Counted from the first letter of the stretch, positions 1,407-62,876 are shown. The stretch: 64,000 nucleotides of DNA from a virus (IMGVR_UViG_3300031951_000010); one strand, 5' to 3'. The notes: generated by a model from the sequence alone, not told the origin. Made by a program: numbers and translations.

Positions 1407-1481
1407 TGGCTGGTGCCCCGAGACTCGAACTCGGAACCATTCGATTAACAGTCGAACGCTCTACCATTGAGCTAGGCACCA
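1407..1481 (-). tRNA. tRNA-Asn(GTT)
   Basis: Canonical cloverleaf: TGGTGCC/GGCACCA acceptor, loop CTGTTAA, TTCGAGT T-loop, G73, encoded CCA. Confidence 0.95.
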
Positions 1482-1491
1482 GTATTTTTTA

Positions 1492-1565
1492 TGGGAGCAA
1501 CGGAGGGAATCGAACCCTCTCGTGAAGAAATATGAACTCTTACTGCACGTCCCGTGCTCGTTGCC
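1492..1565 (-). tRNA. Atypical tRNA-Met(CAT)-like RNA
   Basis: GGCAACG/CGTTGCT acceptor + C + CCA; T-arm GAGGG-TTCGATT-CCCTC; anticodon loop TTCATAT; short D-arm GCAC-GGGAC-GTGC with 1-nt linker. Confidence 0.75.
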
Positions 1566-1585
1566 ACGAAAATATAAATTTAAAC

Positions 1586-1620
1586 AAAAAAACAGAGAGA
1601 AACTTAGTGGCTCCTCTCTG
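1586..1620 (-). terminator. Attenuator terminator upstream of tRNA-Met/Asn
   Basis: CAGAGAGGAG-CCACTAAG-TTTCTCTCTG followed by T7 on the minus strand. Confidence 0.85.
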
Positions 1621-1649
1621 CGTGAAAACAATGATGCGAATTCTTTCGA

Positions 1650-1709
1650 TCACTGATCAGGAGGTCCACTAAAGGCCCACATATTATTATTCAAATTCAT
1701 ATTAAACAT
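1650..1709 (-). CDS. Met/Asn-rich attenuator leader peptide MFNMNLNNNMWAFSGPPDQ
   Basis: 3 ATG and 5 AAT in the first 10 codons; 3' end complementary to the terminator 5' arm; directly upstream of tRNA-Met-like and tRNA-Asn. Confidence 0.8.
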   Translation of the reverse strand: MFNMNLNNNMWAFSGPPDQ

Positions 1710-1800
1710 GTTTAATCACTATTCTTGCGATGAATGTAATCCACCTGCTTATTTATACGACGGCTTTGATAAAAAAGTTTCACGATGCCAATATTTTTAA

Positions 1801-3136
1801 AAAGTAACCTGCAAAAATTCCCCATCTGCTAGTCGGTGGGGATGAATTGCAGTAATTAGAAAATATTCTACTATTTTTCTAAAACATATAGGTGATAGTA
1901 AATATTAACTGTAAAAGAGACTTATATGCTAAAGGCATATAAGTTTTTGATAAAACCCACAAAGGAGCAAATTGAGATGTTTGAAAAACATTTTGGTGCT
2001 ACTAGGTTTGTCTATAACTGGGGATTAGAACAAAAAACAAAATCTTATCAAGAAGGGAAAAAGACATTGACTTTTCTTGGATTGGGTCCAGAACTTGTTA
2101 AGTTTAAAAAAGAAAACATCTGGATGAAGGAAGTAAATAGCCAATCACTATTGGCTTCTCTGAAAAATTTAGACAATGCCTATACTAGATTCTTCAGAGA
2201 AAAGAAAGGATTTCCTAAATTCAAATCAAAATATAATCCAAAACAATCCTTCCAGTGCCCTCAACATTGTTCTGTAGATTTTGATAACTCTGAATTAACA
2301 ATCCCAAAGATTAAAAATATCAAAACTATATTCCATAGACAATTTGAAGGGGATATCAAAACAGTAACTATTTCTAGGGTTCCTTCTGGCAAATACTATG
2401 TTTCAATTCTAGTGGAAGATGGCAAAGAATTACCAATTAAATCTAAGCTAACTAGAAACAATGCTGTAGGCATTGACATGGGATTGAAATATTTTGTAGT
2501 TACTTCAGATGGAGAAAAAATTGCTAATCCAAAGTATTTCAGGAAATCCGAAGAAAGACTTGCAAGAAAACAAAAGAAATTAAGCAAGAAAAAGAAAGGG
2601 AGCAATAATAGGAATAAACAAAAACAAAAAGTAGCGAAGCTACATGAAAAAATAGCTAATCAAAGAAAAGACTTTCTACATAAAGTATCTCATAAAATAG
2701 TTCACAAGAACCACGGAACGATTTGTGTTGAGGATTTGTGTGTTAAAGGGATGGTCAGAAATCATAAATTAGCTAAATCAATATCTGATGTAGGATGGGG
2801 AATGTTCTATAACTTTTTGAAATATAAATCAGACTGGTATGGAAAGAATTTTCTTGATATTGGACAATTTGAACCTTCTAGTAAAATGTGTTCAGTTTGT
2901 GGTAATATTAAATCAGATTTGACATTATCTGATAGAGAATGGACTTGTGAGAGATGCAACAACAAACACGATAGAGATATCAATGCTTCTATTAACATTC
3001 GAAACATGGCATTCACTGCTCAGAATTTGATAAGATGCATAGGGTTGGAACAACCCGAATCAACGCCTGTGGAATTGTTAGGTTACTAACGACTACGAAG
3101 CAGGAAGCCCCACCCTTTATGGGTGGGGTAGTTCAC
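1801..3136 (+). mobile_element. IS200/IS605-family (IS1341-type, tnpB-only) element
   Basis: Left-end hairpin CCCCATC...GGTGGGG and right-end hairpin CCCCACCC-TTTAT-GGGTGGGG ending TTCAC; TTTAA immediately 5' of the left end; no tnpA. Confidence 0.85.
1926..3089 (+). CDS. tnpB: TnpB RNA-guided endonuclease
   Basis: N-terminal MLKAYKFLIKP HTH, RuvC motifs GIDMG / VEDL / DRDINAS, and CSVC...CERC zinc finger. Confidence 0.97.
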   Translation: MLKAYKFLIKPTKEQIEMFEKHFGATRFVYNWGLEQKTKSYQEGKKTLTFLGLGPELVKFKKENIWMKEVNSQSLLASLKNLDNAYTRFFREKKGFPKFKSKYNPKQSFQCPQHCSVDFDNSELTIPKIKNIKTIFHRQFEGDIKTVTISRVPSGKYYVSILVEDGKELPIKSKLTRNNAVGIDMGLKYFVVTSDGEKIANPKYFRKSEERLARKQKKLSKKKKGSNNRNKQKQKVAKLHEKIANQRKDFLHKVSHKIVHKNHGTICVEDLCVKGMVRNHKLAKSISDVGWGMFYNFLKYKSDWYGKNFLDIGQFEPSSKMCSVCGNIKSDLTLSDREWTCERCNNKHDRDINASINIRNMAFTAQNLIRCIGLEQPESTPVELLGY

Positions 3137-3156
3137 ATTCATTCATAATACTATAT
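3040..3156 (+). ncRNA. Probable omegaRNA (reRNA) 3' scaffold plus guide
   Basis: Structured 3' end of tnpB through the right-end TTCAC; the flanking ~20 nt would be the guide, by analogy with known TnpB systems; 5' boundary uncertain. Confidence 0.6.
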
Positions 3157-3223
3157 ACGATCATAAAAGAAATACAGTTGCTGATCCAAGGAAGCAAAAT
3201 CATAAAACAAGAAATTAAACTGA

Positions 3224-3850
3224 ATGTGGTGGAGAAATCGATTCGCGCAATATCAGCAAAACTCAAGCTTTCCGAACATGAACGTCGAAGACAAAACAAC
3301 CGACGAGAAACAATTTTATGAATGGATGGAACAAGCTGATGAAGTCGCAGCAAATGTCGCGAATGAATTTTATAAACAACCAGATAAAAAACAATCGTGG
3401 CGATTAGTCCCAGCACCAAGAATCATCAAAATATGGAAAGACTTTGCTAAATTTGGATTTGTCCGCGATGAAAAAGGACTCGATCAAATCGCACAAATTA
3501 TGATCGAAAATACACAAAAACTTCACGCCAACACAATCTTCATGGAACATGAAGAAATGTCCGCGGAAAGCTATGCTGAAGGACTTGAACTAAACCACAA
3601 TTATGATCCAGAATTATATGATGAAAAATTCCCCCAGCACGTAGAAGATGAACATGGACAGTGGAGAATTAGCGATGTCGCATTAGCCCCGCTTGTCAAA
3701 GATAGCATGCAACTAATGGCAGAATCAGACCCAACTAGAAAATTACTGATCATAGACAGAATGCTGAATAGAATCCACGCAAGATCGGATATCGCAGCAC
3801 TCTTTATCGAAGGCGGAACACAAACGTTAAACCAAATGTTCGCGGGATAA
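3224..3850 (+). CDS. Hypothetical protein
   Basis: 208 aa ORF with plausible composition. Confidence 0.7.
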   Translation: MWWRNRFAQYQQNSSFPNMNVEDKTTDEKQFYEWMEQADEVAANVANEFYKQPDKKQSWRLVPAPRIIKIWKDFAKFGFVRDEKGLDQIAQIMIENTQKLHANTIFMEHEEMSAESYAEGLELNHNYDPELYDEKFPQHVEDEHGQWRISDVALAPLVKDSMQLMAESDPTRKLLIIDRMLNRIHARSDIAALFIEGGTQTLNQMFAG

Positions 3851-3855
3851 TTTAT

Positions 3856-4692
3856 CTACCCCGCGAAACGATTTGTTTGATAGGCACTCACCGCAGTCAC
3901 GATGTCGTGCAAATCCGCCGCATAAAATCCACTTGCGTTAAAACAATTACATTCTAATACATATAACTGCCCATTAGATGCACACACATCCATTACACAA
4001 ACTTCATGAGGCGTCCAGATAGAAGCCATTTCACGGCCAAAATCTAACACCGCAGCTGGAACATTTTCGTCCACAACAGGACGATAGCCGCTGGCAGCCA
4101 CAATCTCTCCCTGCACCACCACCAAACGCCACTCACCCTCTATCGGCTTAACACTCGCAAGACACACTTCGCAGTTGTGATTAAAAATATCTCCGCCAAC
4201 ATAATTGTCGCCCGAACCTTCTTTAATGTCCAAGAGATCACTAAAAAACAAAGTGCCTCCAGAAATTTGCTTACTGTCATCATTCACGCGAATAAATAAT
4301 TCTTCGCCTAAAGAATAATCCGTATCCTTAATGTCATCGATTTTTACAACACGCATATCCGCGTTAAAGTAGCGATCCTTATAGTGATAGAGATACTGAT
4401 CGGGACGAAAAGCGGAAGGATCGAAGAAAATCCCACGACGATATTTGCGCGATTTCCAAGCAATACGATTGAGCGTCGTACTCCCAATTAACACAAAAGG
4501 ATCAACCGCCCCCAATCGGGGCATCCGATCCAGAAAAGGAATTATATTAAAAGAATCAGACTGTATTCCTAAATCAGAACACACAACGTGAATCTTCTCA
4601 TCCACACCACGAGCAACATTCTTTTGTACATACCATTTACAAGCCATTTTGTCCATACTTATAATACGATTGAATGAAAAATAATTTCCCAT
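3856..4692 (-). CDS. ATP-grasp domain protein (DUF4343/R2K-like)
   Basis: EWRLVVVQGEIVAASGY...VMDVC...YVLECNCFNASGFY motif. Confidence 0.75.
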   Translation of the reverse strand: MGNYFSFNRIISMDKMACKWYVQKNVARGVDEKIHVVCSDLGIQSDSFNIIPFLDRMPRLGAVDPFVLIGSTTLNRIAWKSRKYRRGIFFDPSAFRPDQYLYHYKDRYFNADMRVVKIDDIKDTDYSLGEELFIRVNDDSKQISGGTLFFSDLLDIKEGSGDNYVGGDIFNHNCEVCLASVKPIEGEWRLVVVQGEIVAASGYRPVVDENVPAAVLDFGREMASIWTPHEVCVMDVCASNGQLYVLECNCFNASGFYAADLHDIVTAVSAYQTNRFAG

Positions 4693-4740
4693 GGACTTAG
4701 CCCCCTATAAACACAAACTAAACAAACCAATTATATAATC

Positions 4741-5214
4741 GTGAAAAACTTTATCCTAACAGAACTTAACTCCGAAGAGAAAATTCAAAAGGCATCCAAA
4801 ATCTTTGAAAATGAAATCAATAGGATATGGCGACAAACAGTTATCACACCAATACAAAATAAATTTGATGGCGAAAAACAACAAACAACAAAACAATTTC
4901 AAACTCAATGCCAATTCCAACTAGAAACAAATAATCCAGGCGTCCCGCTCATGTTCTCAAAACCTGGAATGATAAGAACGTTCAGAATACTCGAAAAAGA
5001 AATTATGAACATAATCATAGATACAGCGAAAACACAAGAAACTATCGATTATGAACATATACATGATGATCGTATCGCAAACCTGAATAATATCCGAACA
5101 ATGAAAGGACAATGCGATATTGCAGAAATTAACATATCCGCGAGCATTGAAGAAAAACACGACCGCAGATATGTTACGATGATCGCAAAAACACAAATAG
5201 ACCTAAACTGCTAA
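4741..5214 (+). CDS. Hypothetical protein
   Basis: 157 aa ORF. Confidence 0.55.
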   Translation: MKNFILTELNSEEKIQKASKIFENEINRIWRQTVITPIQNKFDGEKQQTTKQFQTQCQFQLETNNPGVPLMFSKPGMIRTFRILEKEIMNIIIDTAKTQETIDYEHIHDDRIANLNNIRTMKGQCDIAEINISASIEEKHDRRYVTMIAKTQIDLNC

Positions 5215-5244
5215 CCAACAAATGAATATGATCGTAGCCGCAGC

Positions 5245-5625
5245 TCACTCCGATTGTAATTCAAGCAAAGCCACGCAAAGATCATAAATACTCCAAGCAT
5301 CCTCCAAAGCAGCCGTGCGAGCCCCCTTCTCAGTATAACGTTCAGAATTATAATGATATTCCTTCAGTGACTTGCCATCCTTATCACGAAAAACTAAATA
5401 CCAATAAGGAGTGTACTGAGGATCACCCCGACGATTGTTATAACCAAAGTGAAAACCAATCGGGAACTCTAAACGATCACGATCCTCCAAATTAACAAGC
5501 CTCCGAAGATAATTAGCCTTCGAAGATAACATCTGCTTTTTATCATGATAATCACGATCCAAAACAGACTGCTCTTCCAATAAACGATCCAACTCAACAC
5601 GCGCAGATAAAATCTTATCACTCAT
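5245..5625 (-). CDS. Hypothetical protein
   Basis: 126 aa ORF in the minus-strand operon. Confidence 0.65.
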   Translation of the reverse strand: MSDKILSARVELDRLLEEQSVLDRDYHDKKQMLSSKANYLRRLVNLEDRDRLEFPIGFHFGYNNRRGDPQYTPYWYLVFRDKDGKSLKEYHYNSERYTEKGARTAALEDAWSIYDLCVALLELQSE

Positions 5626-5745
5626 AATCTAAAAAAACCCCCGATCAAAAACATGATCGTAAAATAATATGGGCAAACAATAACACACAATCTAGAGAAG
5701 AAAAAACTTTCGGGGAAAAGAGAATCTTTTTCCCGAAAAACAAAA

Positions 5746-6339
5746 TCAAATATTTGAACACGTAATGTCAGAAATATATAAATCATCATCGCAAGAAACA
5801 ATATGCATCTTAAACTCAAAAAAATCAGGATGCCATAAAGAATATAAATGATTTGCAAATTCTATAACGACAGAAGGAAGATAATCATACCCAGCAAAAT
5901 ATTCATACCCAGAATGATGGAAATTATAAGGCTGCAATGTTTTATTAACAAAAGAGACAACATAAACTGAATCAACAGGCTTATGACGAGAAATATATAA
6001 AGCAATATCTAAAAGATTGCTTAAACTAAAATTTAATGCACGAGCAAGCTTTGCTCCACGAACAGAATCAATTACACTGCTCATATCAATTTCACGTTTC
6101 AAATGATTGTATCTTAAATTCAACAAATCATTAAACGAAAGTCCATCATAATGATGAAATTGATGTATGTCCTGAAATATAAAAACATCCAGCATCTCAT
6201 TCAAGTCATAATCACTTTCGGAAAGATCACGAAAACTCGTCACGAATAAATCACTATGTAAATACAAATCACCATAATGACGAATCATATCAATGCAACT
6301 GACAGGATGCAAATAAGGCTGAATATACATAAAAATCAA
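5746..6339 (-). CDS. Tandem paralog 4 of an unknown family
   Basis: Shares CIDMIRHYGDLYLHSDLFVTS..DLSESDYDL and the C-terminal CDDDLYISDI motif with its neighbours. Confidence 0.8.
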   Translation of the reverse strand: MIFMYIQPYLHPVSCIDMIRHYGDLYLHSDLFVTSFRDLSESDYDLNEMLDVFIFQDIHQFHHYDGLSFNDLLNLRYNHLKREIDMSSVIDSVRGAKLARALNFSLSNLLDIALYISRHKPVDSVYVVSFVNKTLQPYNFHHSGYEYFAGYDYLPSVVIEFANHLYSLWHPDFFEFKMHIVSCDDDLYISDITCSNI

Positions 6340-6998
6340 AAGCCCAAATAAAAAATCAAACTCGATACGTAAAGCTCACCATCACAAATGCTAATCTCAT
6401 AAACATAAGACGGAACACCAACCCTGTGAGGAGAATACAAAGACTCTAAGTGATCAATAAAATCAATTACTTCCGCTTGTACTCCAAAAGGAATGTGATC
6501 AAACTTTGAAATACTACCGTTGCACATCTCAACACTAAAAGACCTTTCGACTCTCTTGAAAGAAGATAAATACAAATCGTCATTAGCACCAATCATTAAA
6601 CACTGATAAGGATTATCGGATAAATTGATCTTGATCACACCTACATTGTGACAATGCAATAACTTATAAAATAACATCGTATATACAATACTCTTTTCAG
6701 CAGGCTTGTCAAGATAACCCAAACAATGAACGTTAACAGGCTCGCCCAAATCATAATCACTTTCGGAAAGATCATTTAAACTTGTTAAGAATAAATCGCT
6801 GTGTAAATACAAATCACCATAATGATGAATCATCTCAATACAACTCATAGAACCATAAGACTTTAAATCATTGTTTAAAGCTGCAGGAGCGACATTGCCC
6901 ATGAATATAGGGACTCCATTCATATGACCAACCTTGGATGGACCACACCAGTTCGTCATATTACCCATAACACCATTTATATTCAAACCGTTTTTCAT
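6336..6998 (-). CDS. Tandem paralog 3 of an unknown family
   Basis: Same HSDLF..LSESDY block and YEISICDGELYVS. Confidence 0.8.
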   Translation of the reverse strand: MKNGLNINGVMGNMTNWCGPSKVGHMNGVPIFMGNVAPAALNNDLKSYGSMSCIEMIHHYGDLYLHSDLFLTSLNDLSESDYDLGEPVNVHCLGYLDKPAEKSIVYTMLFYKLLHCHNVGVIKINLSDNPYQCLMIGANDDLYLSSFKRVERSFSVEMCNGSISKFDHIPFGVQAEVIDFIDHLESLYSPHRVGVPSYVYEISICDGELYVSSLIFYLGF

Positions 6999-7017
6999 TT
7001 ATAGCACATCAACATTT

Positions 7018-7713: not shown

Positions 7714-7714
7714 A

Positions 7715-19772: not shown

Positions 19773-21467
19773 ATGTCCAATATTAAAGAAATTAAAATCA
19801 GTGATGGAGTTTTTGCTATAGTAGATGAGCAAGATTACGAACGTGTTATCAGCGTTGGTAATTGGCATATGCTTAAGGGTAGAAAATTTGTGTATCACCG
19901 ATTTAAGAAAAATGGCACGCGGTCACGAACTTCGCTTGGAGCTTTTATCTTGGGTTGCGCAGAAGTAAAGCATATTAATGGTGATGCGTTGGACTGCCGA
20001 AGATCGAATCTGATCCCAAAATTAGACAATAAGTCAGAATTTGTTCGCGAAGATGGTATTATTGGACATGTTTTAGATTCTTATGGAAGCCAAATTGCTG
20101 TAATTGATTCTGCAGATATTCCTCGCGCTCGACTTGTAAGGTGGTGGAAGGATGATAGCCGAGGGGTCTTGGGCAAGCTATCGAATGGCAAGCAAATTAA
20201 TCTTCAGAGATGGATTCTAGAGCTTGAATCCAGTGACTCACGCGCTGTTTTTTTTAAGGACGGTGATTTTACGAATTGTCGCAGATCAAATATGCATATT
20301 GTAAAGAATCCCACAGCTTTACGTTCTTACGAAAGAAAATTTAATGATTTTTCAATCCAGGGTTCAACTGTTTACATTAAATCGTATTGGAAATCTTATC
20401 CATTTGAAGTTCAAGTAGACGTTTCTGATTTAGATATGATAAAATCATACGGAAGATGGTCTATTATAGGCAGTGCTGAGCCGTATTTGTATGCTGTTGG
20501 CTCTAATTCAAGTGGCAAACAGATTCGTATGCATCGATTAATTATGAATGCACAAAAAACAGAAATTGTTGATCATATTGATGGAAATACATTAAACAAT
20601 CAGCGTGCTAATTTAAGAGTTACGGATAACCGCGGTAATGCCTTAAATCGCAACGTTTCTTCAAAAGGTGTTTCTGGCGATTCTAATGTTTACTTTCTGA
20701 GTCATTTAAAATCAAGACAGTGGTTGGTGAATCTTCGAGAAAAAGGTAGAAGTCTACACTGGTCTAGGCACGAAGACTTAGACACCGCACGCGAAACAGC
20801 ACAGCTGGCAAGAGCCATGTATTATCCGACAAGTAAAGAAGGCACTGCGATCACTGTAAATCTTGGGGGTTATCTAGAGTCTAGTTTTGTTAATGGCCCA
20901 GGAAATCGATGTGTAGTATGGTTTGCTGGCTGCCGCCGTGGATGCGTGGGTTGTTTTAATCCAGAACTTTGGTCTTTCCAGCCTCAGAATTTAGTTTCTC
21001 CAGAATCTCTTGCCAGTCGCATTATCAATAGTCAAGTTCATGGGTTGACTATCTCAGGCGGTGATCCGATGGATTCTCCGCTGGCAACTTTCCGATTTTT
21101 GAGAGCATTGCATGATTCGAACGGGGAATTAGGGGATCGCTTACCAGGCGGAATTATTCTTTTCACTGGCATGGTAATTGAGGAGTTAAATTATGTTCAA
21201 CGCGAATGCTTGAATTACATTGATCTTCTTATCGATGGCCGATTCGAGCAAGACAAGAGAATCGATCACATCCTTGCTGGCAGCTCAAATCAGCGCTTCC
21301 ATTTTCTTGACAAACCTGGCCGCGGAAAAGACAGAATCAATCCCGACGAAGTAAAGATCGACCATGAAGTCGAAGTGCACGCTAGCTCCGATCATTTAGA
21401 GATCACGGGCTTCCCATTTGTCAAGCACCAATGGTTAAAACAACACGGTTTAAAAGTAATTAAATAA
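19773..21467 (+). CDS. nrdG: Fusion of HNH-endonuclease repeats with an NrdG-like radical-SAM activase
   Basis: Three HNH-like units (last intact: RMHRLIM..VDHIDGNTLNNQRANLR), then S.VNGPG.RCVVWFAGCRRGCVGCFNPELW, GLTISGGDP, DLLIDGRF, GSSNQR. Confidence 0.85.
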   Translation: MSNIKEIKISDGVFAIVDEQDYERVISVGNWHMLKGRKFVYHRFKKNGTRSRTSLGAFILGCAEVKHINGDALDCRRSNLIPKLDNKSEFVREDGIIGHVLDSYGSQIAVIDSADIPRARLVRWWKDDSRGVLGKLSNGKQINLQRWILELESSDSRAVFFKDGDFTNCRRSNMHIVKNPTALRSYERKFNDFSIQGSTVYIKSYWKSYPFEVQVDVSDLDMIKSYGRWSIIGSAEPYLYAVGSNSSGKQIRMHRLIMNAQKTEIVDHIDGNTLNNQRANLRVTDNRGNALNRNVSSKGVSGDSNVYFLSHLKSRQWLVNLREKGRSLHWSRHEDLDTARETAQLARAMYYPTSKEGTAITVNLGGYLESSFVNGPGNRCVVWFAGCRRGCVGCFNPELWSFQPQNLVSPESLASRIINSQVHGLTISGGDPMDSPLATFRFLRALHDSNGELGDRLPGGIILFTGMVIEELNYVQRECLNYIDLLIDGRFEQDKRIDHILAGSSNQRFHFLDKPGRGKDRINPDEVKIDHEVEVHASSDHLEITGFPFVKHQWLKQHGLKVIK

Positions 21468-24480: not shown

Positions 24481-24490
24481 TCAGAATTGA

Positions 24491-24580
24491 AACTTTTTTG
24501 ATATTCTGATCGTATTATAATTGACGGTACGTGTGGTATTGTTATTTCATTTGTAGGGGGCGCAAGCCCCCTTTTCCTTT
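24491..24580 (+). ncRNA. sRNA cassette 1 (promoter + 32 nt + GCAA terminator)
   Basis: 33-nt conserved head, variable body, GGGGGCGCAAGCCCCC + T-run. Confidence 0.6.
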
Positions 24581-28181: not shown

Positions 28182-28194
28182 TTTCTGATCGTGC

Positions 28195-28285
28195 AACTTT
28201 TTTGATATTCTGATCGTATTATAATTGAGATAACGAACTGTATCTTATTTTCAAGTCGAGGGGGCGCAAGCCCCCTTTTTCCTTT
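28195..28285 (+). ncRNA. sRNA cassette 2 (32-nt body)
   Basis: Head and terminator hairpin identical to cassette 1. Confidence 0.6.
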
Positions 28286-28895: not shown

Positions 28896-28904
28896 TTTTC
28901 TGGA

Positions 28905-29010
28905 AACTTTTTTGATATTCTGATCGTATTATAATTGGAACACAAAAGAGAAAAAGATAAATTTCGACGAGATGAGAGCAAGCTGGGGGCGCAAGCCCCC
29001 ATTGCTATTT
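28905..29010 (+). ncRNA. sRNA cassette 3 (47-nt body)
   Basis: Identical head and hairpin. Confidence 0.55.
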
Positions 29011-29875: not shown

Positions 29876-30068
29876 AAACAAAAGAAAAAATCACAAACAT
29901 TATGGGAAAAGCTTTGTGTCTGCTAGGTAAACATAACTGGTCATGGTACGAAGGATTGTCTTTTCGAGATGGAATGTATCAACGATGCAAAAGATGCAAG
30001 AGAGTGAATCCTAAAACTTGGTGACTTAAAAATCCCCTTTTTTCTTTTTCTGATCGGATATATGAAAC

Positions 30069-35784: not shown

Positions 35785-35851
35785 AAATCCCCTATTCTTG
35801 TGGCCCAATTTGAATGTATAAAGGGATGAATACATTTATGGGAGGCGTGTT

Positions 35852-55540: not shown

Positions 55541-55580
55541 AAAATCCCCTTTTTCAGAATAATGATCGGATATAAGAAGC

Positions 55581-55928
55581 ATGAGTGAAGATTTTTTGAA
55601 CGGTTTTGCTATCGGTGCTGTTGCGATTATAGTTATTTGGGTTTGCTCGGCAATTAAGGCGAGTATTCCAAAACCTACAAACATGGGGTGGCTCGATGGA
55701 TCGGGTGATTGGATTGAGGTGGTTCGTATCGGTCACTCAGGAGTGACTGTGCGACATTGTGGGTATAATTCACGTAATTCACACTGGACATTTAGGCGCT
55801 GTGCAGAAGATGCTGGCTGGCCTCTTTCCAAGATGCTTGATTACCTGGGCCTTCCCGATGAAAAGACACTCAAGGAAGCTGACATGACCATGGGTGAATG
55901 GCTTTCACAAAAAAATAAAAATTCTTGA
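55581..55928 (+). CDS. Membrane-anchored hypothetical protein (paralog of 56430)
   Basis: CA.DAGW...M.D.LGLPDE..LKE..MT.GEWL. Confidence 0.7.
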   Translation: MSEDFLNGFAIGAVAIIVIWVCSAIKASIPKPTNMGWLDGSGDWIEVVRIGHSGVTVRHCGYNSRNSHWTFRRCAEDAGWPLSKMLDYLGLPDEKTLKEADMTMGEWLSQKNKNS

Positions 55929-55956
55929 AACTTTTCAAAGGTGATCGCCGTATAAC
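55927..55956 (+). promoter_or_regulatory. Promoter variant of an attenuated tRNA operon
   Basis: GAAACTTTT...GGTGATCGCCGTATAA; CGYCGTATAA also precedes the leaders at 1709(-) and 61725. Confidence 0.7.
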
Positions 55957-55996
55957 AAAAGAACATACACAAAGCAAAAGCTTTAAGGACACAATT

Positions 55997-56065
55997 ATGA
56001 CTCGCCGATATCTTTCACTGCTAGGACTCTTATCGCTTTCTCTTGAGAAAGCGGCGATTAGCTGA
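55997..56065 (+). CDS. Leu-rich attenuator leader peptide MTRRYLSLLGLLSLSLEKAAIS
   Basis: AAGGA SD; 7 Leu codons (6 CTN); 3' 20 nt complementary to the terminator 5' arm. Confidence 0.82.
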   Translation: MTRRYLSLLGLLSLSLEKAAIS

Positions 56066-56086
56066 TAGATTTTGCGATCAGTGTTT

Positions 56087-56127
56087 AATCCCCGATTTCT
56101 CTCAAGGAGTCGGGGATTTTTGTTTTT
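56087..56127 (+). terminator. Attenuator terminator upstream of tRNA-Leu genes
   Basis: AATCCCCGA...TCGGGGATT followed by TTTGTTTTT. Confidence 0.88.
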
Positions 56128-56138
56128 GCGTTTCACAT

Positions 56139-56223
56139 ACCGCTCTGGAGTAGCCAAACTTGCTACAGGCAACAGTCTTAGAAACTGTCTCTTTTCTGGG
56201 TTGGAATCCCAGGGGCGGTACCA
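56139..56223 (+). tRNA. Atypical tRNA-Leu(TAG)-like RNA
   Basis: ACCGCTC/GGGCGGT-A-CCA; ACAGT-CTTAGAA-ACTGT; T-loop TTGGAAT; GTAGC/GCTAC D-stem; no long variable arm. Confidence 0.7.
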
Positions 56224-56274
56224 ATATTGACAATAGAATAGAGGAAAGAGAAAATAGATTTTCGAGTGATAAAT

Positions 56275-56361
56275 GCGGACGTGGCGGAATTGGTTTACGC
56301 GCTACTTTGAGATGGTAGTCCCCGATTGGGGGTGTGGGTTCGAGTCCCACCGTCCGCACCA
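56275..56361 (+). tRNA. tRNA-Leu(GAG)
   Basis: Canonical type II cloverleaf, loop TTGAGAT, CCA. Confidence 0.93.
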
Positions 56362-56429
56362 AAAATCCCTCAAATTTTCGAGCCGCGATTGTATATATGA
56401 ATTATGAATGATTTTCATGGGAGTGCTCT

Positions 56430-56786
56430 TTGTCTAGTTGGCTGATCGGGTTGATTATCACGTTCTTTGTGATTTATTTTTTCTTCGGGAGTCAAAACCT
56501 TGATGATGAAGAAGAAGATTTAGAGTACTTACATTCTTGGAAAGATGGAAATGGCTTTACGACTAAAGTAATCCAAATCGGTCACGATAAGATCGTTGTA
56601 GAAAATTTTAGCAGAAAGCGCGGGCGAAAAGTTCGGGTGTGGACTGTTGAAGAATGCGCCAAAGACGCAGGATGGTCAGTTGAAAAGATGAGAGATCATC
56701 TTGGCCTTCCCGATGAAAGCGCTTTAAAAGAAGTTGAAATGACTCTTGGCGAGTGGCTTCACGAAAAGAATCAACATCAAAGATAG
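56430..56786 (+). CDS. Membrane-anchored hypothetical protein (paralog of 55581)
   Basis: Shared C-terminal block; start ambiguous (the promoter-predicted ATG at 56404 is out of frame). Confidence 0.6.
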   Translation: MSSWLIGLIITFFVIYFFFGSQNLDDEEEDLEYLHSWKDGNGFTTKVIQIGHDKIVVENFSRKRGRKVRVWTVEECAKDAGWSVEKMRDHLGLPDESALKEVEMTLGEWLHEKNQHQR

Positions 56787-56840
56787 AACCGATCAGTAAA
56801 AAATCCCCTGTTTTCGTGGGGGATTTTTGATAGATAAAGC

Positions 56841-57966
56841 ATGGCAACACGAGGCTGGGAGCCCACAGACTACAATCCGAACATTATTCGTGATGTTTCT
56901 AATCGAACCATTGAAGAATTTGAAAACGATATTCGATTTTCTCGTGACTGGGGCTTCGTACAAAGTTATGGCCTTGAAAGAGCTACTCAGCTTCTGGGTC
57001 GAGCCCCAGATACCCGAGCAGTTGAATTCTTTAATGAGTTCATGTCTCAGTATTCCCGAGCCGTCGAGCTTATGGAACAGCTAGGCATCAAAAAGAAGAT
57101 TCTGAAAAAATTCAAGCGATATCCGATTGCTCCTTGTCTTTATGCTGATTTGAATGAAGAATGTAATGATGTATTGACGGGATCGAAAATCGGTGGAATT
57201 CCTGACCAGCGCCAAGCTGGAAGTGCGCTGTCTTCAAGGCAATATTGTTAGTCGCATCAAGGCAGCTTGGCCCAAGGATTCAAATGGTAAATATATGATA
57301 TTCGTTGGCCAAATCAAAGTGCCTGGACACATCGTCGCTCCCTGGGATTATATCATGGGCGAGAAAATAGACAAGTATGGAAATTATGATCGACCTCTTA
57401 ATGGGTTTAGCCACGGGCAGAACATTTTTGAACAAGAGCATACTTATTTAATTTTTCGCAGTGCGCATGCACCAAATTTTGGAGACATGTTCGATTGTGC
57501 GATGGTGCATTCTCGCTTCGATGCCAATGAATCGGTAAAGGAAGATAAATATATTGAGGCTGTGAAAAAAGCTATTCCGCAGTATCGCCGAAGCAACATG
57601 GAAGACAATTGTCCAATTTGGAGTGATCGGTGTCACACGCTAACTGATTACCGAGTTAGCATGACGCTTGATTTAATTCGCGACTTTGAATGGGCAGGTG
57701 GGTTTGAAGGCAATGTATTTGATTACATAGATTCGTGGAGAGAACACTTCGGTTCTTATGGCACAATTCAAATTTTTGGCGATCCAAGATCACAACAGAC
57801 CCCACAGCGATTTGCTGAAACACGCACTGTTTACCGTCCTCGAATGATGCGCCCGTGGCTTGGAATGACAGACCTAAAGCACGATTACACTTGGCAATAT
57901 AATTTTTGTCACGAAGGTTTTCTGAGTGAATCAATTATGGGCAAAGTTGATGGAAGCTGTACCTAA
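56841..57966 (+). pseudogene. YwqG/DUF1963-like gene split by a frameshift (56841..57251 + 57193..57966)
   Basis: GSKIGGIPD in one frame continues as WPK...MIFVGQI in the +1 frame. Confidence 0.5.
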
Positions 57967-58010
57967 TTAAAAATCCCCTGTTTTTCATGGGGGATTTTGA
58001 TATATAAGGC

Positions 58011-58412
58011 ATGGCTGATTATTACACCCATTTTTCCTTTGTCGTTGACGTTAAGAATCGTGAACAAGCAGACGGTTTGAAGAAAATGCTCACCCAGGCC
58101 AAAAATGAAGAGCTAAATGAAGAAACTTTGTACACTCCTTGGAGTTGTGAAACTAAGGACGATTTAACTAGCTTTTGGTTTCACTCTGATGATTGTGGTC
58201 AGGTTGATCTTATTGTTGACATTTTGGCTAAATGGCAAGAAGACTTCAATTACGATCAGCCCATTTGTTTTGAGTGGGCGAATACTTGTAGTAAGCCCAA
58301 ACTGGATGCTTTTGGTGGTGGGTCAGTTCTGATTTACAAGGGCGAAGCTCATTACACGAACACTTTTGATTGGTTGACTAAAAAGAAAGCCGAACTTGGA
58401 ATCGTTGACTGA
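58011..58412 (+). CDS. Hypothetical protein
   Basis: MADYYTHFSF...FEWANTCSKPKLDAFGGG phage-type family. Confidence 0.75.
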   Translation: MADYYTHFSFVVDVKNREQADGLKKMLTQAKNEELNEETLYTPWSCETKDDLTSFWFHSDDCGQVDLIVDILAKWQEDFNYDQPICFEWANTCSKPKLDAFGGGSVLIYKGEAHYTNTFDWLTKKKAELGIVD

Positions 58413-58457
58413 CTAAAAAATCCCCTGTTTTTCAATAGGGGATTTGATATATCAATT

Positions 58458-58594
58458 GTGCCAAGAAGCACTTGAAGTGCAGTCTACGGATATGCCTTAT
58501 TAGGGCATGTGATTACTGCGTAGGAAGGACAGGGTGTAATGAAGTACGGTCGCGACGAAAAGTTACATCGGGTTAAAATCCCAACTTGGCACCA
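58458..58594 (+). ncRNA. 137-nt tRNA-like RNA
   Basis: Starts at the promoter-predicted +1; GTGCCAAG/CTTGGCAC terminal stem, ends ...CCA; GCAC-N5-GTGC-AGT arm; GGG-TTAAAAT-CCC T-like arm. Confidence 0.65.
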
Positions 58595-58616
58595 AATTGA
58601 AAAATGAGAATCTAAT

Positions 58617-58917
58617 CGGGGCGTGGCGAAATGGCAGACGCAGGGGACTTATAAAATGAGCACTTGTTTGTGAAAGCTGCAAGTGAATGCAATCAAATTC
58701 GGTGAAACCTTAACAGTTAGGCTGATGGCAATACCGAGCCAAGCTAACTCAAAACAGAGTTAGAAGGTGTAGAGACTAGATGGTTGCTGCCTAAGTCGAA
58801 AGATATGGCAAAGGTATAGTCCAGACCACAAAATCCTTTGGGATCGTAGTGAAAGCTATAGTGGTATGAAAATCCCTTAGTAGCAATACTGTGTGGGTTC
58901 GAGTCCCACCGCCCCGA
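58617..58917 (+). tRNA. tRNA-Leu(TAA) with group I intron
   Basis: Exons 58617-58650 and 58869-58917 rebuild loop CTT|AAAA; CCA not encoded. Confidence 0.9.
58651..58868 (+). ncRNA. Group I intron (trnL/IC3-like), 218 nt, no ORF
   Basis: P AAATTCGGTGAAAC, Q AATACCGAGC, R GTGTAGAGACTAGATGG, S AAGGTATAGTCC; terminal G; inserted after U34. Confidence 0.9.
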
Positions 58918-58946
58918 TTAGGTTATATATTGATTACTAATGCGCT

Positions 58947-59465
58947 TTGTGTGCTTTTAGTATAAGAATGTTTGTGTCACGTTTGCAAAAATATACCCTA
59001 GAGGAGATAAAAGAAATAATATCTAAATCAAAATCTTATGCTGAAGTAATTCGATCTATTGGTTTAATTCCTGCTGGTGGAAATTACAAAACATTGCAAA
59101 GTTTTGTACATGAATACCGAATTGATACTTCGCATTTTCTGGGCTCAGCTTGGGGGCGAGGAAACCAATTGGATTATCTCCACAATAGCAATAGAAAATC
59201 ATTAGAAGATGTTTTTTCGGGAAAAGTAGCTTATAAATCAAGCCATAAATTAAGGCTTCGGCTGATTAAAGAAGGATATTTTGAGCATAAATGCTATAAA
59301 TGTGGACTAAAAGAGTGGCAAGGACACGAAATACCCTTGGAATTAGAGCATATAAATGGAGATCATTGTGATAACAGTCTCGAAAACCTCATTATTCTTT
59401 GCCCCAACTGTCATGCTCAAACAGAAACTTATGCTGGTAAAAACAAAAAAAGACGATTAGGTTAA
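58947..59465 (+). CDS. Free-standing HNH endonuclease
   Basis: CYKC...LELEHINGDHCDNSLENL..LCPNCH. Confidence 0.9.
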   Translation: MCAFSIRMFVSRLQKYTLEEIKEIISKSKSYAEVIRSIGLIPAGGNYKTLQSFVHEYRIDTSHFLGSAWGRGNQLDYLHNSNRKSLEDVFSGKVAYKSSHKLRLRLIKEGYFEHKCYKCGLKEWQGHEIPLELEHINGDHCDNSLENLIILCPNCHAQTETYAGKNKKRRLG

Positions 59466-59505
59466 AAATCCCCTAAATTTTTCTTCAGATTTCGATAAAT
59501 TAATT

Positions 59506-59754
59506 ATGATCGATGACAAAAGAACTTCAGAATGTGTTATTCTTCATATTGAAGTTGATGTTGAGTACCCTGAAGGAATGCATCTTGGGGTTGTTCTATC
59601 TGGTTTGCAAAACAATGCGAAAATTGCCATTACTGAACTTGATGACGATAGGGTCCAAATCACAGCAAATAGAATCACAGCAGTTGAACATTTTGTTACT
59701 GGAGAAATTTTAGAAGATTACCAGTGGAAAAAGAAAAAAGAATCTCCTCGATAA
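59506..59754 (+). CDS. Hypothetical protein
   Basis: Fronted by the promoter motif. Confidence 0.6.
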   Translation: MIDDKRTSECVILHIEVDVEYPEGMHLGVVLSGLQNNAKIAITELDDDRVQITANRITAVEHFVTGEILEDYQWKKKKESPR

Positions 59755-59758
59755 ATGT

Positions 59759-59842
59759 GCCGCAGTGGTGGAATGGTAGACACGGCAAGCTCAAACCTTG
59801 CTGCCGAAAGGCGTGAAGGTTCGAATCCTTTTTGCGGCACCA
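59759..59842 (+). tRNA. tRNA-Leu(CAA)
   Basis: Type II cloverleaf, loop CTCAAAC, CCA. Confidence 0.93.
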
Positions 59843-59910
59843 TATTTTCACATATGCATGACTATGTGAAAAATCCCCTGTTTTCTCTTTCTTGATCGGA
59901 TATATAAATC

Positions 59911-60540
59911 ATGTTTAATATGAATGTGATTCTTTTCAAGAACAATTCTATCGAAGAAAATTATCTTTTCTCTGGTGAAAATTCTGAAGATGTTGCGAAA
60001 AAGGCAGAAAGCAAAATGATTGAAATTCTTCGTTCAGAAATGTCTAACTTTGACGAATACACGTCGGAAGATATTGACAACATTTTGGAAGATGGATATG
60101 AATCCTTTGGAAATGGAGCGGTTTTTATTACGTGGCCTGACATTGTTGATGTTGATAAGGAGATTGATTCGGAAAATAATTTTGTTTTTCGTGGCACTAT
60201 TGAATACTCCATCCCGCACATTGATTCAGAAGTAGTTCGCCTGTGCGCCGCACTAAATGAGCCCATTGAAGTTGGTCTACAGTGGGAATCACATTATCGC
60301 AATGGTAATGGCTACGCTGTCCGCGTTAATGCAGATATCTACTCAGTTGATGAAGAACTTGCTGCCGAGGAATTTAGTGATTATTGGGATTCAGGATGCG
60401 ATGATGAAATTCGCTATTCTGGGGACTACAATTGGTCCCTTTTGGGCAAAGACTATAAAGAGGCCATCAGTATTCTCCAAAAGTATGTTGATGAGCAAAA
60501 GCGTCGTTACCCAGGCTACGATATTAGAATTAGCAAATAA
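59911..60540 (+). CDS. Hypothetical protein
   Basis: Fronted by the promoter motif. Confidence 0.7.
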   Translation: MFNMNVILFKNNSIEENYLFSGENSEDVAKKAESKMIEILRSEMSNFDEYTSEDIDNILEDGYESFGNGAVFITWPDIVDVDKEIDSENNFVFRGTIEYSIPHIDSEVVRLCAALNEPIEVGLQWESHYRNGNGYAVRVNADIYSVDEELAAEEFSDYWDSGCDDEIRYSGDYNWSLLGKDYKEAISILQKYVDEQKRRYPGYDIRISK

Positions 60541-60577
60541 TCCCCTGTTTTCTCTTTCTTGATCGAATATATAAATC

Positions 60578-61000
60578 ATGACAATTGACGGAAAGTTGCT
60601 TAAAAGACTAATGTGTAGCAACGAGGCTTTTGATATTTTGGGTGACATCGTAAGTTGGAATTCTGGAGGTTGCTGGATTCTTGCCGAAGCTCTGCGCCGA
60701 TTCATTGGCGATCAGGCTACTATCGTGGCCATCGCTGATGATCGCTGCCAACACCAACATATTGTCGTGAAAGTGGGGAATTTGTATTATGACGCCGACG
60801 GAGAGTCGAACGAAGGGCGTCTGCTGCATCGCTGGATGGATTATGAACGACTCCGTAATCCTCGAATCGTAGGTTTTGATCCAGAACTGGCCGCTGATTT
60901 AGAAATTCCTTGCGAAGAAGAACTTGTAACGCAAGTCTATAACTTGCTGAACTCGCGTCTGAAAAATCCCCTTTTTTCACAATCGGGAGCGCATATATAA
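60578..61000 (+). CDS. Hypothetical protein
   Basis: GGCWILAEAL...H.VVK....YDADG motif. Confidence 0.7.
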   Translation: MTIDGKLLKRLMCSNEAFDILGDIVSWNSGGCWILAEALRRFIGDQATIVAIADDRCQHQHIVVKVGNLYYDADGESNEGRLLHRWMDYERLRNPRIVGFDPELAADLEIPCEEELVTQVYNLLNSRLKNPLFSQSGAHI

Positions 61001-61003
61001 ATC

Positions 61004-61210
61004 ATGGACCCATTTCTTTTTTATTCTACCTATTTTATCTTGGGACTTGGTTTTATGTTCGCATTGATGGCAATCGGAGCGCATCACTATACCAATGGCC
61101 CATCTCGTGAACAAGAACAAAAACAAAGAATCAAGTTTATTATTCTATCAGTGCTTTTAATAGCTAGTGCAATTTTTCTGGGCCGTTATGCTGCGGGTCT
61201 GCTTTTTTGA
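61004..61210 (+). CDS. Small membrane protein
   Basis: Two TM segments; fronted by the promoter motif. Confidence 0.65.
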   Translation: MDPFLFYSTYFILGLGFMFALMAIGAHHYTNGPSREQEQKQRIKFIILSVLLIASAIFLGRYAAGLLF

Positions 61211-61276
61211 TTTCATTCTCTTGAAATGGTTTTAAAAAATCCCCTTTTTTCAGAAAACCAAATCAATATAAAAAAT

Positions 61277-61597
61277 ATGCGAATTCGACCGCAATCCGAC
61301 CCGAACAAGGAATATCTCATCGACTTTTACTACCCGTATGGGAAGCAAGGACACAAGAAGAAGGGCACCAAGACTGTCTGCACTATCTCTGTCGGCCCTG
61401 TGGGTAGTCTCGACAAGGACAAGACCGAAGTCTCGACCACTACCGTTCGCCGACATAGTACCGATCAGGACAATCTTGTCGTAGCTCGTAATTATGCACT
61501 GGCCAAGGCCCTATCCCCGATTGAAGCTAGTGTCCGACAAGAGATTTGGGAACAGGCTCCGATTCGACGAGCAGACATTTCCCTGGAACTCGACTAA
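61277..61597 (+). CDS. Hypothetical protein
   Basis: Fronted by the promoter motif; terminator-like hairpin at 61615-61648. Confidence 0.65.
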   Translation: MRIRPQSDPNKEYLIDFYYPYGKQGHKKKGTKTVCTISVGPVGSLDKDKTEVSTTTVRRHSTDQDNLVVARNYALAKALSPIEASVRQEIWEQAPIRRADISLELD

Positions 61598-61724
61598 ACT
61601 CCAAAAACATTCTCATTGAGGGAGAATTTAATCCCTCAATGAGAAAAAACAAAAAACTGCTAACAAAAAGCAGGTGATCGTCGTATAATAAGAGAAGAAA
61701 CTGAAAAGCACAAAGAGCTATATT

Positions 61725-61847
61725 ATGAATCATCTCTTATCGACGACAATATGTGGAACAACAGGAACCTCAACAAGAGGAATCCTTTCCCTTGGCGTTA
61801 TCGGCAAGGATAGTGATTCTGATTCAGGAGAACCCATCGAATCGTAG
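61725..61847 (+). CDS. Thr/Gly/Ser-rich attenuator leader peptide (40 aa)
   Basis: MNHLLSTTICGTTGTSTRGILSLGVIGKDSDSDSGEPIES; ACA x4 and GGA x4; end complementary to the terminator arm. Confidence 0.78.
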   Translation: MNHLLSTTICGTTGTSTRGILSLGVIGKDSDSDSGEPIES

Positions 61848-61867
61848 CTTTACTGTGATTACAGAAC

Positions 61868-61908
61868 AAAGAGGCTCGATTCGATAAGATCGAGCCTCTT
61901 TTCTTTTT
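61868..61908 (+). terminator. Attenuator terminator upstream of tRNA-Gly/Ser/Thr
   Basis: 13-bp stem AAAGAGGCTCGAT/ATCGAGCCTCTTT followed by a T-rich tail. Confidence 0.9.
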
Positions 61909-62037
61909 AGATATGATGTCTGGGAAGAGAAAGATCGAATATTGAAAATTTCATACAGGTATAGATATAAAAGTGTTAGGGGGTGTTGGATCGATCTTTG
62001 ATCGCAGGCCTCACCCCCTTGATCGAGACACATTTTC

Positions 62038-62111
62038 GCGAGATTGGTATATGGGTTGTGCCCTAGCCTTCCAAGCTAGAGAAAAGGGTTCGAATCCCTT
62101 ATCTCGCTCCA
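62038..62111 (+). tRNA. tRNA-Gly(TCC)
   Basis: Cloverleaf, loop CTTCCAA, U73, CCA. Confidence 0.93.
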
Positions 62112-62162
62112 ATTTAAGACACATTTCTTTGTGCTGCCAATGGGCAGCTTTCAAAAGAAAAC

Positions 62163-62249
62163 GGATGGGTGACAGAGCGATCTATTGTAGCGGTCTTGAA
62201 AACCGCCGTGCCAAAAGCACCGTGGGTTTGAATCCCACCCCATCCTCCA
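62163..62249 (+). tRNA. tRNA-Ser(TGA)
   Basis: Type II, loop CTTGAAA, CCA; U73 is atypical for Ser. Confidence 0.9.
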
Positions 62250-62276
62250 TTTTGTAACAAAATCATAAAATTCAAA

Positions 62277-62310
62277 GCAGGTGTAGCTCAGTGGTAGAGC
62301 GCCCGCCGCG
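62277..62310 (+). pseudogene. Orphan tRNA 5' half
   Basis: GCAGGTG-TA-GCTC-AGTGGTA-GAGC; acceptor pairs 6/7 with CTCCTGC at 62869-62875. Confidence 0.65.
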
Positions 62311-62347
62311 AAGGTTGATGGTTGCAATATCGATAAATAGATTATGT

Positions 62348-62764
62348 ATGGCAATAACAAAATACAAAGGAGCCGTCGGGCTAACTAATGTAATGGCCTG
62401 TCTTGTCAATCAAAAAGCAAAAATCTTTGTTCCAATAGACGAAGACTGTCAATATGACCTGGTGGTAGATTATCAAAATTATCTTTACAGAGTGCAAGTT
62501 AAATATGCTGAGGCAAAAAATGGCAAGATCGTTGTAAAGACGCGCTCAACGAATAACTATTGTGAAATTCGTTATACTAAAGATCATTTTGACGTGATTG
62601 CTGTTTGGGACAATGTTGGCAAAAAAGCATATTTTATTTCATCGAATTTAATCACAGAAGGAATGACGGAAATGACCTTGAGATTAGATGCACCAAAAAA
62701 CAATCAAACTAAAAACATAAGATTGGCTCGTAATTATGAGCAATTTAATGCTGCGGTCGCATAG
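62348..62764 (+). CDS. PD-(D/E)XK endonuclease (I-Ssp6803I-like)
   Basis: TK.KG...P......YDLVVD....YRVQVK...Y....FD..AV; 3' end overlaps tRNA-Thr. Confidence 0.85.
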   Translation: MAITKYKGAVGLTNVMACLVNQKAKIFVPIDEDCQYDLVVDYQNYLYRVQVKYAEAKNGKIVVKTRSTNNYCEIRYTKDHFDVIAVWDNVGKKAYFISSNLITEGMTEMTLRLDAPKNNQTKNIRLARNYEQFNAAVA

Positions 62765-62832
62765 TGGTCGATTGCACCTCTCTTGTAAAGAGGAACTCCA
62801 CACCGTGGGTTCGAATCCCACCCGTAGCTCCA
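62750..62832 (+). tRNA. tRNA-Thr(TGT)
   Basis: GCTGCGG/CCGTAGC, loop CTTGTAA, CCA; 11-nt variable region. Confidence 0.88.
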
Positions 62833-62845
62833 TTTTTCGCACATA

Positions 62846-62876
62846 TGTGTCAGGGGTTCGAATCCCCTCTCCTGCT
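62846..62876 (+). pseudogene. Orphan tRNA 3' half
   Basis: TGTC-AGGGG-TTCGAAT-CCCCT-CTCCTGC-T. Confidence 0.65.

Follow-up and report, generated by a model that had tools for sequence, protein, structure and literature searches.

We analyzed a stretch of 64,000 nucleotides of viral DNA (IMGVR_UViG_3300031951_000010, hereafter the window), in which three groups of tRNA genes each lie behind a short open reading frame (ORF). As judged from the sequence, each of these units, R1 (minus strand, 1781-1407), R2 (55927-56361) and R3 (61673-62832), is probably a ribosome-mediated (leader-peptide) transcription attenuator that is placed before tRNA genes and senses the tRNA supply. In all three, a non-standard promoter comes first, followed by a short ORF, a strong intrinsic terminator and the tRNA genes (Table 1). 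The span 1407-62876 is thus the envelope of three separate units, and the DNA in between is mostly unrelated.

The mechanism that we propose is the following. Transcription would start about 32-37 nt before the short ORF. A ribosome running fast to the stop codon would cover the 3'-terminal RNA segment of the ORF, the terminator hairpin would form and the transcript would end before the tRNAs. A ribosome stalled at the control codons (AAT/ATG in R1, CTN in R2, and ACA/ACG, GGA and TCA/TCG in R3) would leave this segment free to pair with the 5' arm of the terminator, and with such an antiterminator in place the polymerase would enter the tRNA genes. Since the control codons are those read by the tRNAs past each terminator, the circuit would feed back on exactly these tRNAs. 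It would be a negative feedback on the functional supply of the unit's own tRNAs, slow decoding turning their production on and fast decoding turning it off. Here we infer that the leaders are translated, that the polymerase acting at these promoters responds to the terminators, and that tRNA shortage is the trigger. It is also reasonable to infer a link with starvation or with a host defence that cleaves tRNAs (anticodon nucleases).

Layout of the three tRNA units

An initial annotation, made from the sequence alone, had claimed this shared promoter-leader-terminator-tRNA design, and we found all of its elements at the positions claimed. The promoter variant CGYCGTATAA, a motif derived from these same three sites, occurs exactly three times in the window (1762-1753 on the minus strand, 55946-55955 and 61679-61688) for 0.14 expected. 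It is a variant of the GATCG...TATAA core common to the other promoter classes of the phage. The standard phage promoter is very regular (AAAAATCCCCT, about 13 nt, then GATCGGATATATAAA) and is found in at least 25 copies. Its ATG comes only 2-4 nt later, and most genes are therefore expected to be expressed as leaderless mRNAs. The promoters of the tRNA units lack the AAAAATCCCCT element and retain GATCG/TATAA. Their predicted starts (~1745, ~55960 and ~61693) were placed by the spacing of the standard promoter, which gives 5' untranslated regions (UTRs) of 32-37 nt. In R2, a Shine-Dalgarno sequence (AAGGA, 55985-55989) lies 7 nt before the ATG. The stems of the three intrinsic terminators measure 12-14 bp and are rich in GC.

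Regarding the tRNAs that had been claimed, Asn-GTT, Leu-GAG, Gly-TCC, Ser-TGA and Thr-TGT are identified by both ARAGORN and Rfam. The CAT-like RNA of R1 and the TAG-like RNA of R2 are missed by both at default settings and were found by ARAGORN only when its threshold was relaxed. Both fold as cloverleaves with a 7-bp acceptor stem, a T arm, a U33-NNN-A37 anticodon loop and a CCA end. The TAG-like RNA reaches 25 bits with the Rfam tRNA model (cut-off 29), and the CAT-like RNA has no Rfam match. In R3, a split tRNA remnant and an ORF of the PDDEXK_5 family stand between tRNA-Ser and tRNA-Thr.

The alignment of R1, R2 and R3 finds the promoter as their sole common sequence. Beyond the promoter the units are thus not sequence paralogues, and their shared design is not a simple or recent duplication. 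Nor is the layout generic to phage tRNA clusters, since among about 87 tRNAs (80 loci) of distantly related rIIB-carrying phages, none has a strong terminator within 350 nt upstream.

Leader codons and downstream tRNAs

We then compared the codons of the leaders with the tRNAs that follow. The cognate sets were the wobble-cognate codons fixed solely by the downstream anticodons, the background was the codon frequencies of the long ORFs of the window, and empirical ranks were taken against the 568 ATG-ORFs of 15-60 codons in the window. Cognate codons make up 7 of 18 in the R1 leader (binomial P 3.7e-4, rank 0.0018) and, as CTN, 6 of 21 in the R2 leader (P 2.3e-4, rank 0.0035). The R3 leader counts 13 strictly cognate codons out of 39 (P 3.4e-6, rank 0.011). 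None of the six mismatched pairings of a leader with a tRNA set is significant (P 0.21 to 1), and reading each leader in its two alternative frames yields 0-2 cognate codons. The ORFs just before the terminator-less tRNAs of this phage (Leu-CAA, Thr-GGT, Met and Lys) are not enriched either (P 0.77, 0.55, 0.77 and 0.06, respectively).

The matching codons are clustered in R1, with five AAT and two internal ATG inside codons 3-10. The seven Leu codons of R2 are CTT (three times), CTG, CTA, CTC and TTA, with no TTG. The R3 leader contains six Thr, six Gly and seven Ser codons, and its codons 6-19 read TCG ACG ACA ATA TGT GGA ACA ACA GGA ACC TCA ACA AGA GGA.

Because the enrichment is also significant by amino acid (7/21 Leu in R2; 19/39 Thr, Gly and Ser in R3, P 6e-6) and the architecture is that of trpL, leuL and thrL, one could think of classical amino-acid sensors, in which the leaders would report Asn/Met, Leu or Thr/Gly/Ser starvation through the charging of host tRNAs, the tRNA genes being mere cargo. 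An extra tRNA would not, however, ease an amino-acid shortage. Furthermore, the leaders lean to the isoacceptors encoded downstream: R2 does without TTG though Leu-CAA is encoded elsewhere, and five of the six Thr codons of R3 are ACA or ACG though Thr-GGT is encoded elsewhere, each of these biases being weak alone. We therefore regard classical amino-acid sensing as very improbable, and prefer the sensing of tRNA supply.

Mutually exclusive helices

The complementarity between terminators and leaders was assessed as the best duplex formed by the terminator 5' arm and loop with the upstream 70 nt, for all 17 terminator-like hairpins of the window and in comparison with shuffles. The terminators of the tRNA units rank 1 to 3 (z -3.9 for R3, -3.1 for R1 and -2.2 for R2), and the other 14 of the 17 have z between -0.7 and +1.4. 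The antiterminator partner strands are found at the 3' end of each leader ORF (1673-1657, 56044-56060 and 61835-61852, the last across the stop codon), and the duplex amounts to -18.0 kcal/mol in R1 and to -19.9 kcal/mol in R3. As it shares the terminator 5' arm, the antiterminator excludes the terminator in each unit, and conversely.

R2 displays a complete 1:2/2:3/3:4 set of four regions. Its region 1 (CGCTTTCTC) is a near-copy of region 3, the terminator arm (CGATTTCTC), both are complementary to region 2, and the 1:2 helix comprises 9 bp (56033-56041 with 56046-54). For R3, the 1:2 candidate is only a weak pairing of the 5' UTR with region 2, seen in the full-length fold, and no 1:2 helix was seen in the folds of R1. 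Altogether, the layout, the codon match, the mutually exclusive helices and the positions of these helices are shown by the sequence.

These data also bear on another explanation, according to which the ORFs would belong to independent short units (small RNAs or micropeptide genes) located by chance upstream of tRNAs, with tRNA transcription owed to leak-through or to other promoters, and a codon match due to chance or composition. We consider this unlikely. The promoters of R1 and R2 are indeed of the same class (GAAACTTTT...GATCGT..TATAA) as those of three tRNA-less cassettes (24489, 28193 and 28903), each made of a promoter, a short body and a terminator, and GAAACTTTT is common to these five promoters, but the small-RNA cassettes have no ORF. 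Likewise, the R2 peptide is hydrophobic and Leu-rich, resembling a small membrane peptide, but its hydrophobic stretch covers just ~12 residues. There are promoter-like sites past the R2 and R3 terminators; on the other hand, the product of the three empirical ranks of the codon match is about 7e-8, and upstream complementarity is found in the window at these three terminators only.

Ribosome position and the modelled switch

The switch between the two helices was modelled by folding the nascent transcript to the terminator loop, about 30 nt under the ribosome being kept single-stranded at each A-site codon. As readout we took the sequestered fraction of the terminator 5' arm, and the calculation was run with and without a limit on the base-pair span. 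In R2 without ribosome, region 2 is taken up by region 1, which leaves the terminator arm free (0.12-0.19 sequestered). When the A site is on codons 2-13, which include five of the seven Leu codons, region 2 is paired instead with the terminator arm (0.70-0.82 sequestered), and this arm is released when the ribosome stands anywhere between codon 15 and the stop (0.01-0.2). In R3, with a 90-nt pair limit, the sequestered fraction is 0.85 up to codon 35 and 0.02-0.08 at the last codons and stop. In R1 it is 0.66 through codon 10 and 0.13-0.52 afterwards. In these models, the control codons of all three units lie where stalling of the ribosome would let the antiterminator form, and a ribosome at the stop codon masks the antiterminator strand, least cleanly in R1.

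The initial annotation had described leaders enriched for their downstream tRNAs, last leader codons complementary to the terminator 5' arm, and a layout of the trp/leu/thr type. The first two claims withstood our analysis, the complementarity being moreover unique to these three among the 17 hairpins. As to the third, the sequence-level predictions on codon match, strand masking and exclusive helices, and the negative controls, came out as this layout implies.

The same models leave room for attenuators that respond to whether ribosomes translate at all, reporting translation capacity or the timing of infection, with the leader codons secondary. In R1 and R3, the antiterminator is the default without ribosome and termination needs a ribosome on the last ~5 codons, so that any block of translation would lead to read-through. 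Such a general sensor, which seems to us quite unlikely, nevertheless leaves unexplained both the enrichment of each leader in codons of its own tRNAs only, without cross-match, and the termination of an untranslated R2.

Several observations weigh against attenuation by tRNA supply. In equilibrium folding without span limit, distal pairings blur the R1 and R3 switches, and in R3 a distal segment can pair with the terminator 5' arm. The R1 switch is the least clean, with 0.52 of the arm sequestered when the ribosome is on the stop codon. A convincing 1:2 helix is absent from R1 and R3, where an untranslated leader would give read-through. The Shine-Dalgarno sequence is good in R2 only, those of R1 (AGTGA) and R3 (AAGAG) being weak, and the genes of the phage mostly look leaderless, unlike the initiation that we propose on these 5' UTRs. 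The promoters of the tRNA units are not standard sigma-70 promoters, and the response of the polymerase to intrinsic terminators and its coupling to ribosomes are only assumed. Possible bypass promoters are present past the terminators of R2 (TTGACA-17-GAAAAT, 56227-56255) and R3 (TTGAAA-18-TATAAA, 61942-61971), and the tRNA-Thr of R3 stands 500 nt past tRNA-Ser, on the other side of the inserted ORF. At least five other tRNAs of this phage do not have such a control. Finally, the relatives recovered are 97.6-100% identical in the units, which is too alike for covariation.

Comparison with known systems

The units resemble the enterobacterial leaders trpL, leuL, thrL, hisL, ilvL and pheL by their short ORF, clustered control codons, intrinsic terminator and antiterminator sharing the 5' arm. 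As in these leaders, the ribosome position would select the helix, and R2 has their full set of four regions. R3 would be multivalent (Thr/Gly/Ser), as thrL (Thr/Ile) or ilvL. Unlike them, the present units are phage-borne and the regulated genes are tRNAs and not enzymes, with an output that would feed back on the quantity sensed; in addition, R1 and R3 have three regions only and would be on by default if untranslated. There is no sequence similarity with the Rfam amino-acid leader families, none of which matches at the gathering threshold; the sole leader match, Thr_leader, scores 22.7 bits (cut-off 55) and lies on the strand opposite to the R3 terminator.

In its logic, the closest system is the pheST attenuator of Escherichia coli, which controls the phenylalanyl-tRNA synthetase through the pheM leader. 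In both cases, attenuation at a leader governs a component that decodes the codons contained in this leader. However, pheM-pheST is host-encoded and its output is a synthetase protein, whereas the output would be here the tRNA itself. A parallel can also be made with T-box riboswitches, in which a cis terminator/antiterminator switch reports the status of one specific tRNA. In contrast with our units, the T-box binds the uncharged tRNA directly, without ORF, and we know of no T-box that controls tRNA genes. The T-box has no Rfam match at E <= 1 in 1-2500 or 55800-64000. With no qualifying Rfam match, we reject an identity with either the leader families or the T-box.

A comparable arrangement is observed in the Caulobacter phage phiCbK, where three tRNA blocks have a terminator annotated in GenBank directly before them. 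One of these units has a short ORF, gp083 (45 aa), followed by the annotated terminator and 10 tRNAs, and 31 of its 44 codons belong to the amino-acid set of those tRNAs (A, K, L, P and S; P 8e-7). A second one has an antiterminator signal (z -2.9) but only a modest match (P 0.16), and a third shows nothing of the kind. The likeness lies in the succession of a promoter, a short ORF, a terminator and the tRNAs and, for gp083, in an ORF made of the amino acids of the downstream tRNAs. phiCbK is nevertheless of an unrelated lineage without sequence similarity; the units described here are narrow (1-3 amino acids) with a clean 3x3 specificity matrix, and two of them open with non-canonical tRNA-like RNAs. 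The design seems to recur, the present case being an unusually clean instance.

The mechanism is thus a known one, and it is its target, the tRNA genes, and its feedback logic that are new. The initial annotation had stated that no such control was known for phage tRNA genes; in the full-text literature that we searched, whose incomplete coverage makes this an absence of evidence, no description of leader-peptide attenuation of tRNA genes was found for phages or bacteria.

Phage tRNA genes are usually regarded as constitutive helpers for codon usage, and more recently as decoys against defences that cleave tRNAs. If our proposal is true, phages would regulate their tRNA supply by feedback, transcription being tied to the decoding speed of their own codons, and the depletion of one tRNA species should induce its phage replacement. 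Leader-peptide attenuation would extend to an output of a new kind, as its product would be the very molecule that is sensed. The short leaders would provide portable codon-specific sensors for synthetic biology, and a simple annotation rule would follow for the small ORFs that precede phage tRNA arrays. A wider and more speculative hypothesis, which may well turn out to be wrong, is that codon-specific leader-peptide sensors carried by phages monitor the functional tRNA pool in real time and induce replacement tRNAs only if the decoding of the codons concerned slows, for instance once host anticodon nucleases or host shut-off have depleted a tRNA. Among these replacements would be tRNA-like molecules of variant shape, which may escape recognition by host nucleases. 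Such sensors could then form a general, so far undescribed layer of counter-defence and translational homeostasis in phages.

Table 1. Positions of the elements of the three tRNA units in the window.
Element	Position	Strand	Details
R1 promoter	1753-1781	-	GAAACTTTT at 1781-1773, CGTCGTATAA at 1762-1753; predicted start ~1745
R1 leader ORF	1650-1709	-	19 codons + stop, MFNMNLNNNMWAFSGPPDQ
R1 antiterminator 5' strand	1657-1673	-	TTTAGTGGACCTCCTGA, leader codons 13-18; partner 1621-1604
R1 intrinsic terminator	1583-1621	-	12-bp stem 1621-1592 + T-tract; dG -16.7 kcal/mol
R1 CAT-anticodon tRNA-like RNA, non-canonical	1492-1565	-	Short D arm, CCA end; first gene past R1 terminator
R1 tRNA-Asn (GTT)	1407-1481	-	ARAGORN + Rfam, 70 bits
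R2 promoter	55927-55956	+	GAAACTTTT and GGTGATCGCCGTATAAC; predicted start ~55960
R2 leader ORF	55997-56065	+	22 codons + stop, MTRRYLSLLGLLSLSLEKAAIS
R2 region 1	56033-56041	+	TCGCTTTCT
R2 region 2	56045-56060	+	GAGAAAGCGGCGATTA; alternative partners region 1 or terminator 5' arm 56087-56102
R2 intrinsic terminator	56087-56128	+	14-bp stem (56087-56118) + T-tract; dG -20.1 kcal/mol
R2 TAG-anticodon tRNA-like RNA, non-canonical	56139-56223	+	Anticodon loop CTTAGAA, discriminator A, CCA end; without long variable arm
R2 tRNA-Leu (GAG)	56275-56361	+	ARAGORN + Rfam
R3 promoter	61673-61689	+	GGTGATCGTCGTATAAT; predicted start ~61693
R3 leader ORF	61725-61847	+	40 codons + stop
R3 antiterminator 5' strand	61835-61852	+	CATCGAATCGTAGCTTTA, across stop codon; partner 61870-61886
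R3 intrinsic terminator	61868-61911	+	14-bp stem (61868-61901) + T-tract; dG -21.1 kcal/mol
R3 tRNA-Gly (TCC)	62038-62111	+	ARAGORN + Rfam
R3 tRNA-Ser (TGA)	62163-62249	+	ARAGORN + Rfam
R3 tRNA-Thr (TGT)	62750-62832	+	ARAGORN + Rfam

Source phage and conservation

The window comes from a large phage with genes for rIIA, rIIB, HNH endonucleases and a TnpB-like transposase, and with an nrdG-like gene that an HNH insert interrupts. No close relative is present in INPHARED (megablast and blastn, giving tRNA-level matches or none) or in IMG/VR, which was queried with two flanking proteins, rIIB, the promoter 16-mer and the standard-promoter pattern. The IMG/VR matches are due to chance, or to T4-like phages at about 40% identity without the design. 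Many environmental metagenome assemblies carry near-identical contigs. A pattern scan of metagenomes returned only pieces of this same phage (contigs L098 and L099 among them), and the proteins of flanking genes and the 40-aa R3 leader used as queries gave near-identical sequences or no match. On a contig of 420,993 bp (ENA ERZ27248008 k141_2421192; L104 and L112), the left end of the window is at ~409 kb and its right part at ~43 kb. This points to a megaphage whose genome, of about 421 kb, is probably circular or circularly permuted.

An identical R1 is carried by 10 contigs, and identical copies of R2 and R3 by 4-5 contigs. At R2, L102, the one diverged relative, is 98.5% identical over promoter, leader and terminator, and the sole change in the ORF is synonymous (CTC to CTA, Leu). 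Its upstream flanking gene is 91.7% identical in nucleotides and its downstream gene 99.7%; because of the latter value, the conservation of R2 is only a weak argument for selection.

Past the R1 tRNAs and on the same strand, precomputed Pfam assignments indicate genes matching PcfJ, Tad6, NUDIX, methyltransferase, PTH2 (peptidyl-tRNA hydrolase), peptide deformylase and RNA ligase. A phage with PTH2, deformylase and RNA ligase plausibly defends its own translation capacity, which fits a sensor of tRNA supply without being a proof of it. The cluster from Tad6 to RNA ligase, left of the window (L112 7225-12449), consists of genes for translation maintenance, RNA repair and counter-defence.

Other features of the window and its surroundings

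Besides the promoters of the tRNA units, examples of the standard promoter are located at 30030, 36098, 51840 and 59871 (plus strand), and some copies contain a hairpin AAAAATCCCC...GGGGATTTTT. The three cassettes (24489-24580, 28193-28285 and 28903-29010, plus strand) have an identical promoter GAAACTTTTTTGATATTCTGATCGTATTATAAT, short bodies that differ, the same GGGGGCGCAAGCCCCC terminator and no ORF.

In R3, the 136-nt spacer between the terminator and tRNA-Gly contains a stable hairpin GGGGGTG...CACCCCC (61973-62030, plus strand; about -26 kcal/mol with flanks). It is preceded by the sigma-70-like TTGAAA-18-TATAAA, and the arrangement could be a bypass promoter or a processing element. Further downstream in R3, a tRNA-like gene is in two pieces ~535 nt apart, a 5' part with the acceptor and D arm (62275-62311) and a 3' part with the T arm and acceptor (62846-62878). 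The PDDEXK_5-family ORF (62291-62764, phrog_5018) and tRNA-Thr are flanked by these pieces, as if a cassette had been inserted into a tRNA gene; Rfam reports no intron at this gene.

A stretch of ~600 nt behind a standard promoter (62947-63545, plus strand) has no credible ORF and no Rfam match (E <= 1), and ends before a tRNA-Asp (63559-63635). To the right of the window, contig L109 carries Thr-GGT, Met-CAT, Arg-TCT and Lys-TTT tRNAs, all without leader or terminator and each immediately preceded by a small protein gene or by a standard promoter.

An IS605-type OrfB/TnpB (Cas12f-like) gene (1926-3089, plus strand) adjoins the R1 promoter. A copy ~70% identical to it is found in the contig of another strain (L099 51-1270), between the positions 35815 and 36094 of the window, and the element is therefore mobile within this phage population. 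At 58640-58843, Rfam detects a group I intron with 58 bits, which exceeds the gathering score, and an ORF for an HNH endonuclease comes next (58947-59465). Just upstream of this intron, a standard promoter is followed by an RNA of 137 nt (58460-58594) that ends in CCA and has a terminal stem of 8 bp. In a 564-aa ORF (19773-21467, plus strand), an HNH endonuclease domain (residues about 185-357) is fused to a C-terminal part (365-514) that resembles the activase/small subunit of the anaerobic ribonucleotide reductase. Finally, PARP-like and Macro-domain proteins are encoded to the right of the window (L109 10888-19646).

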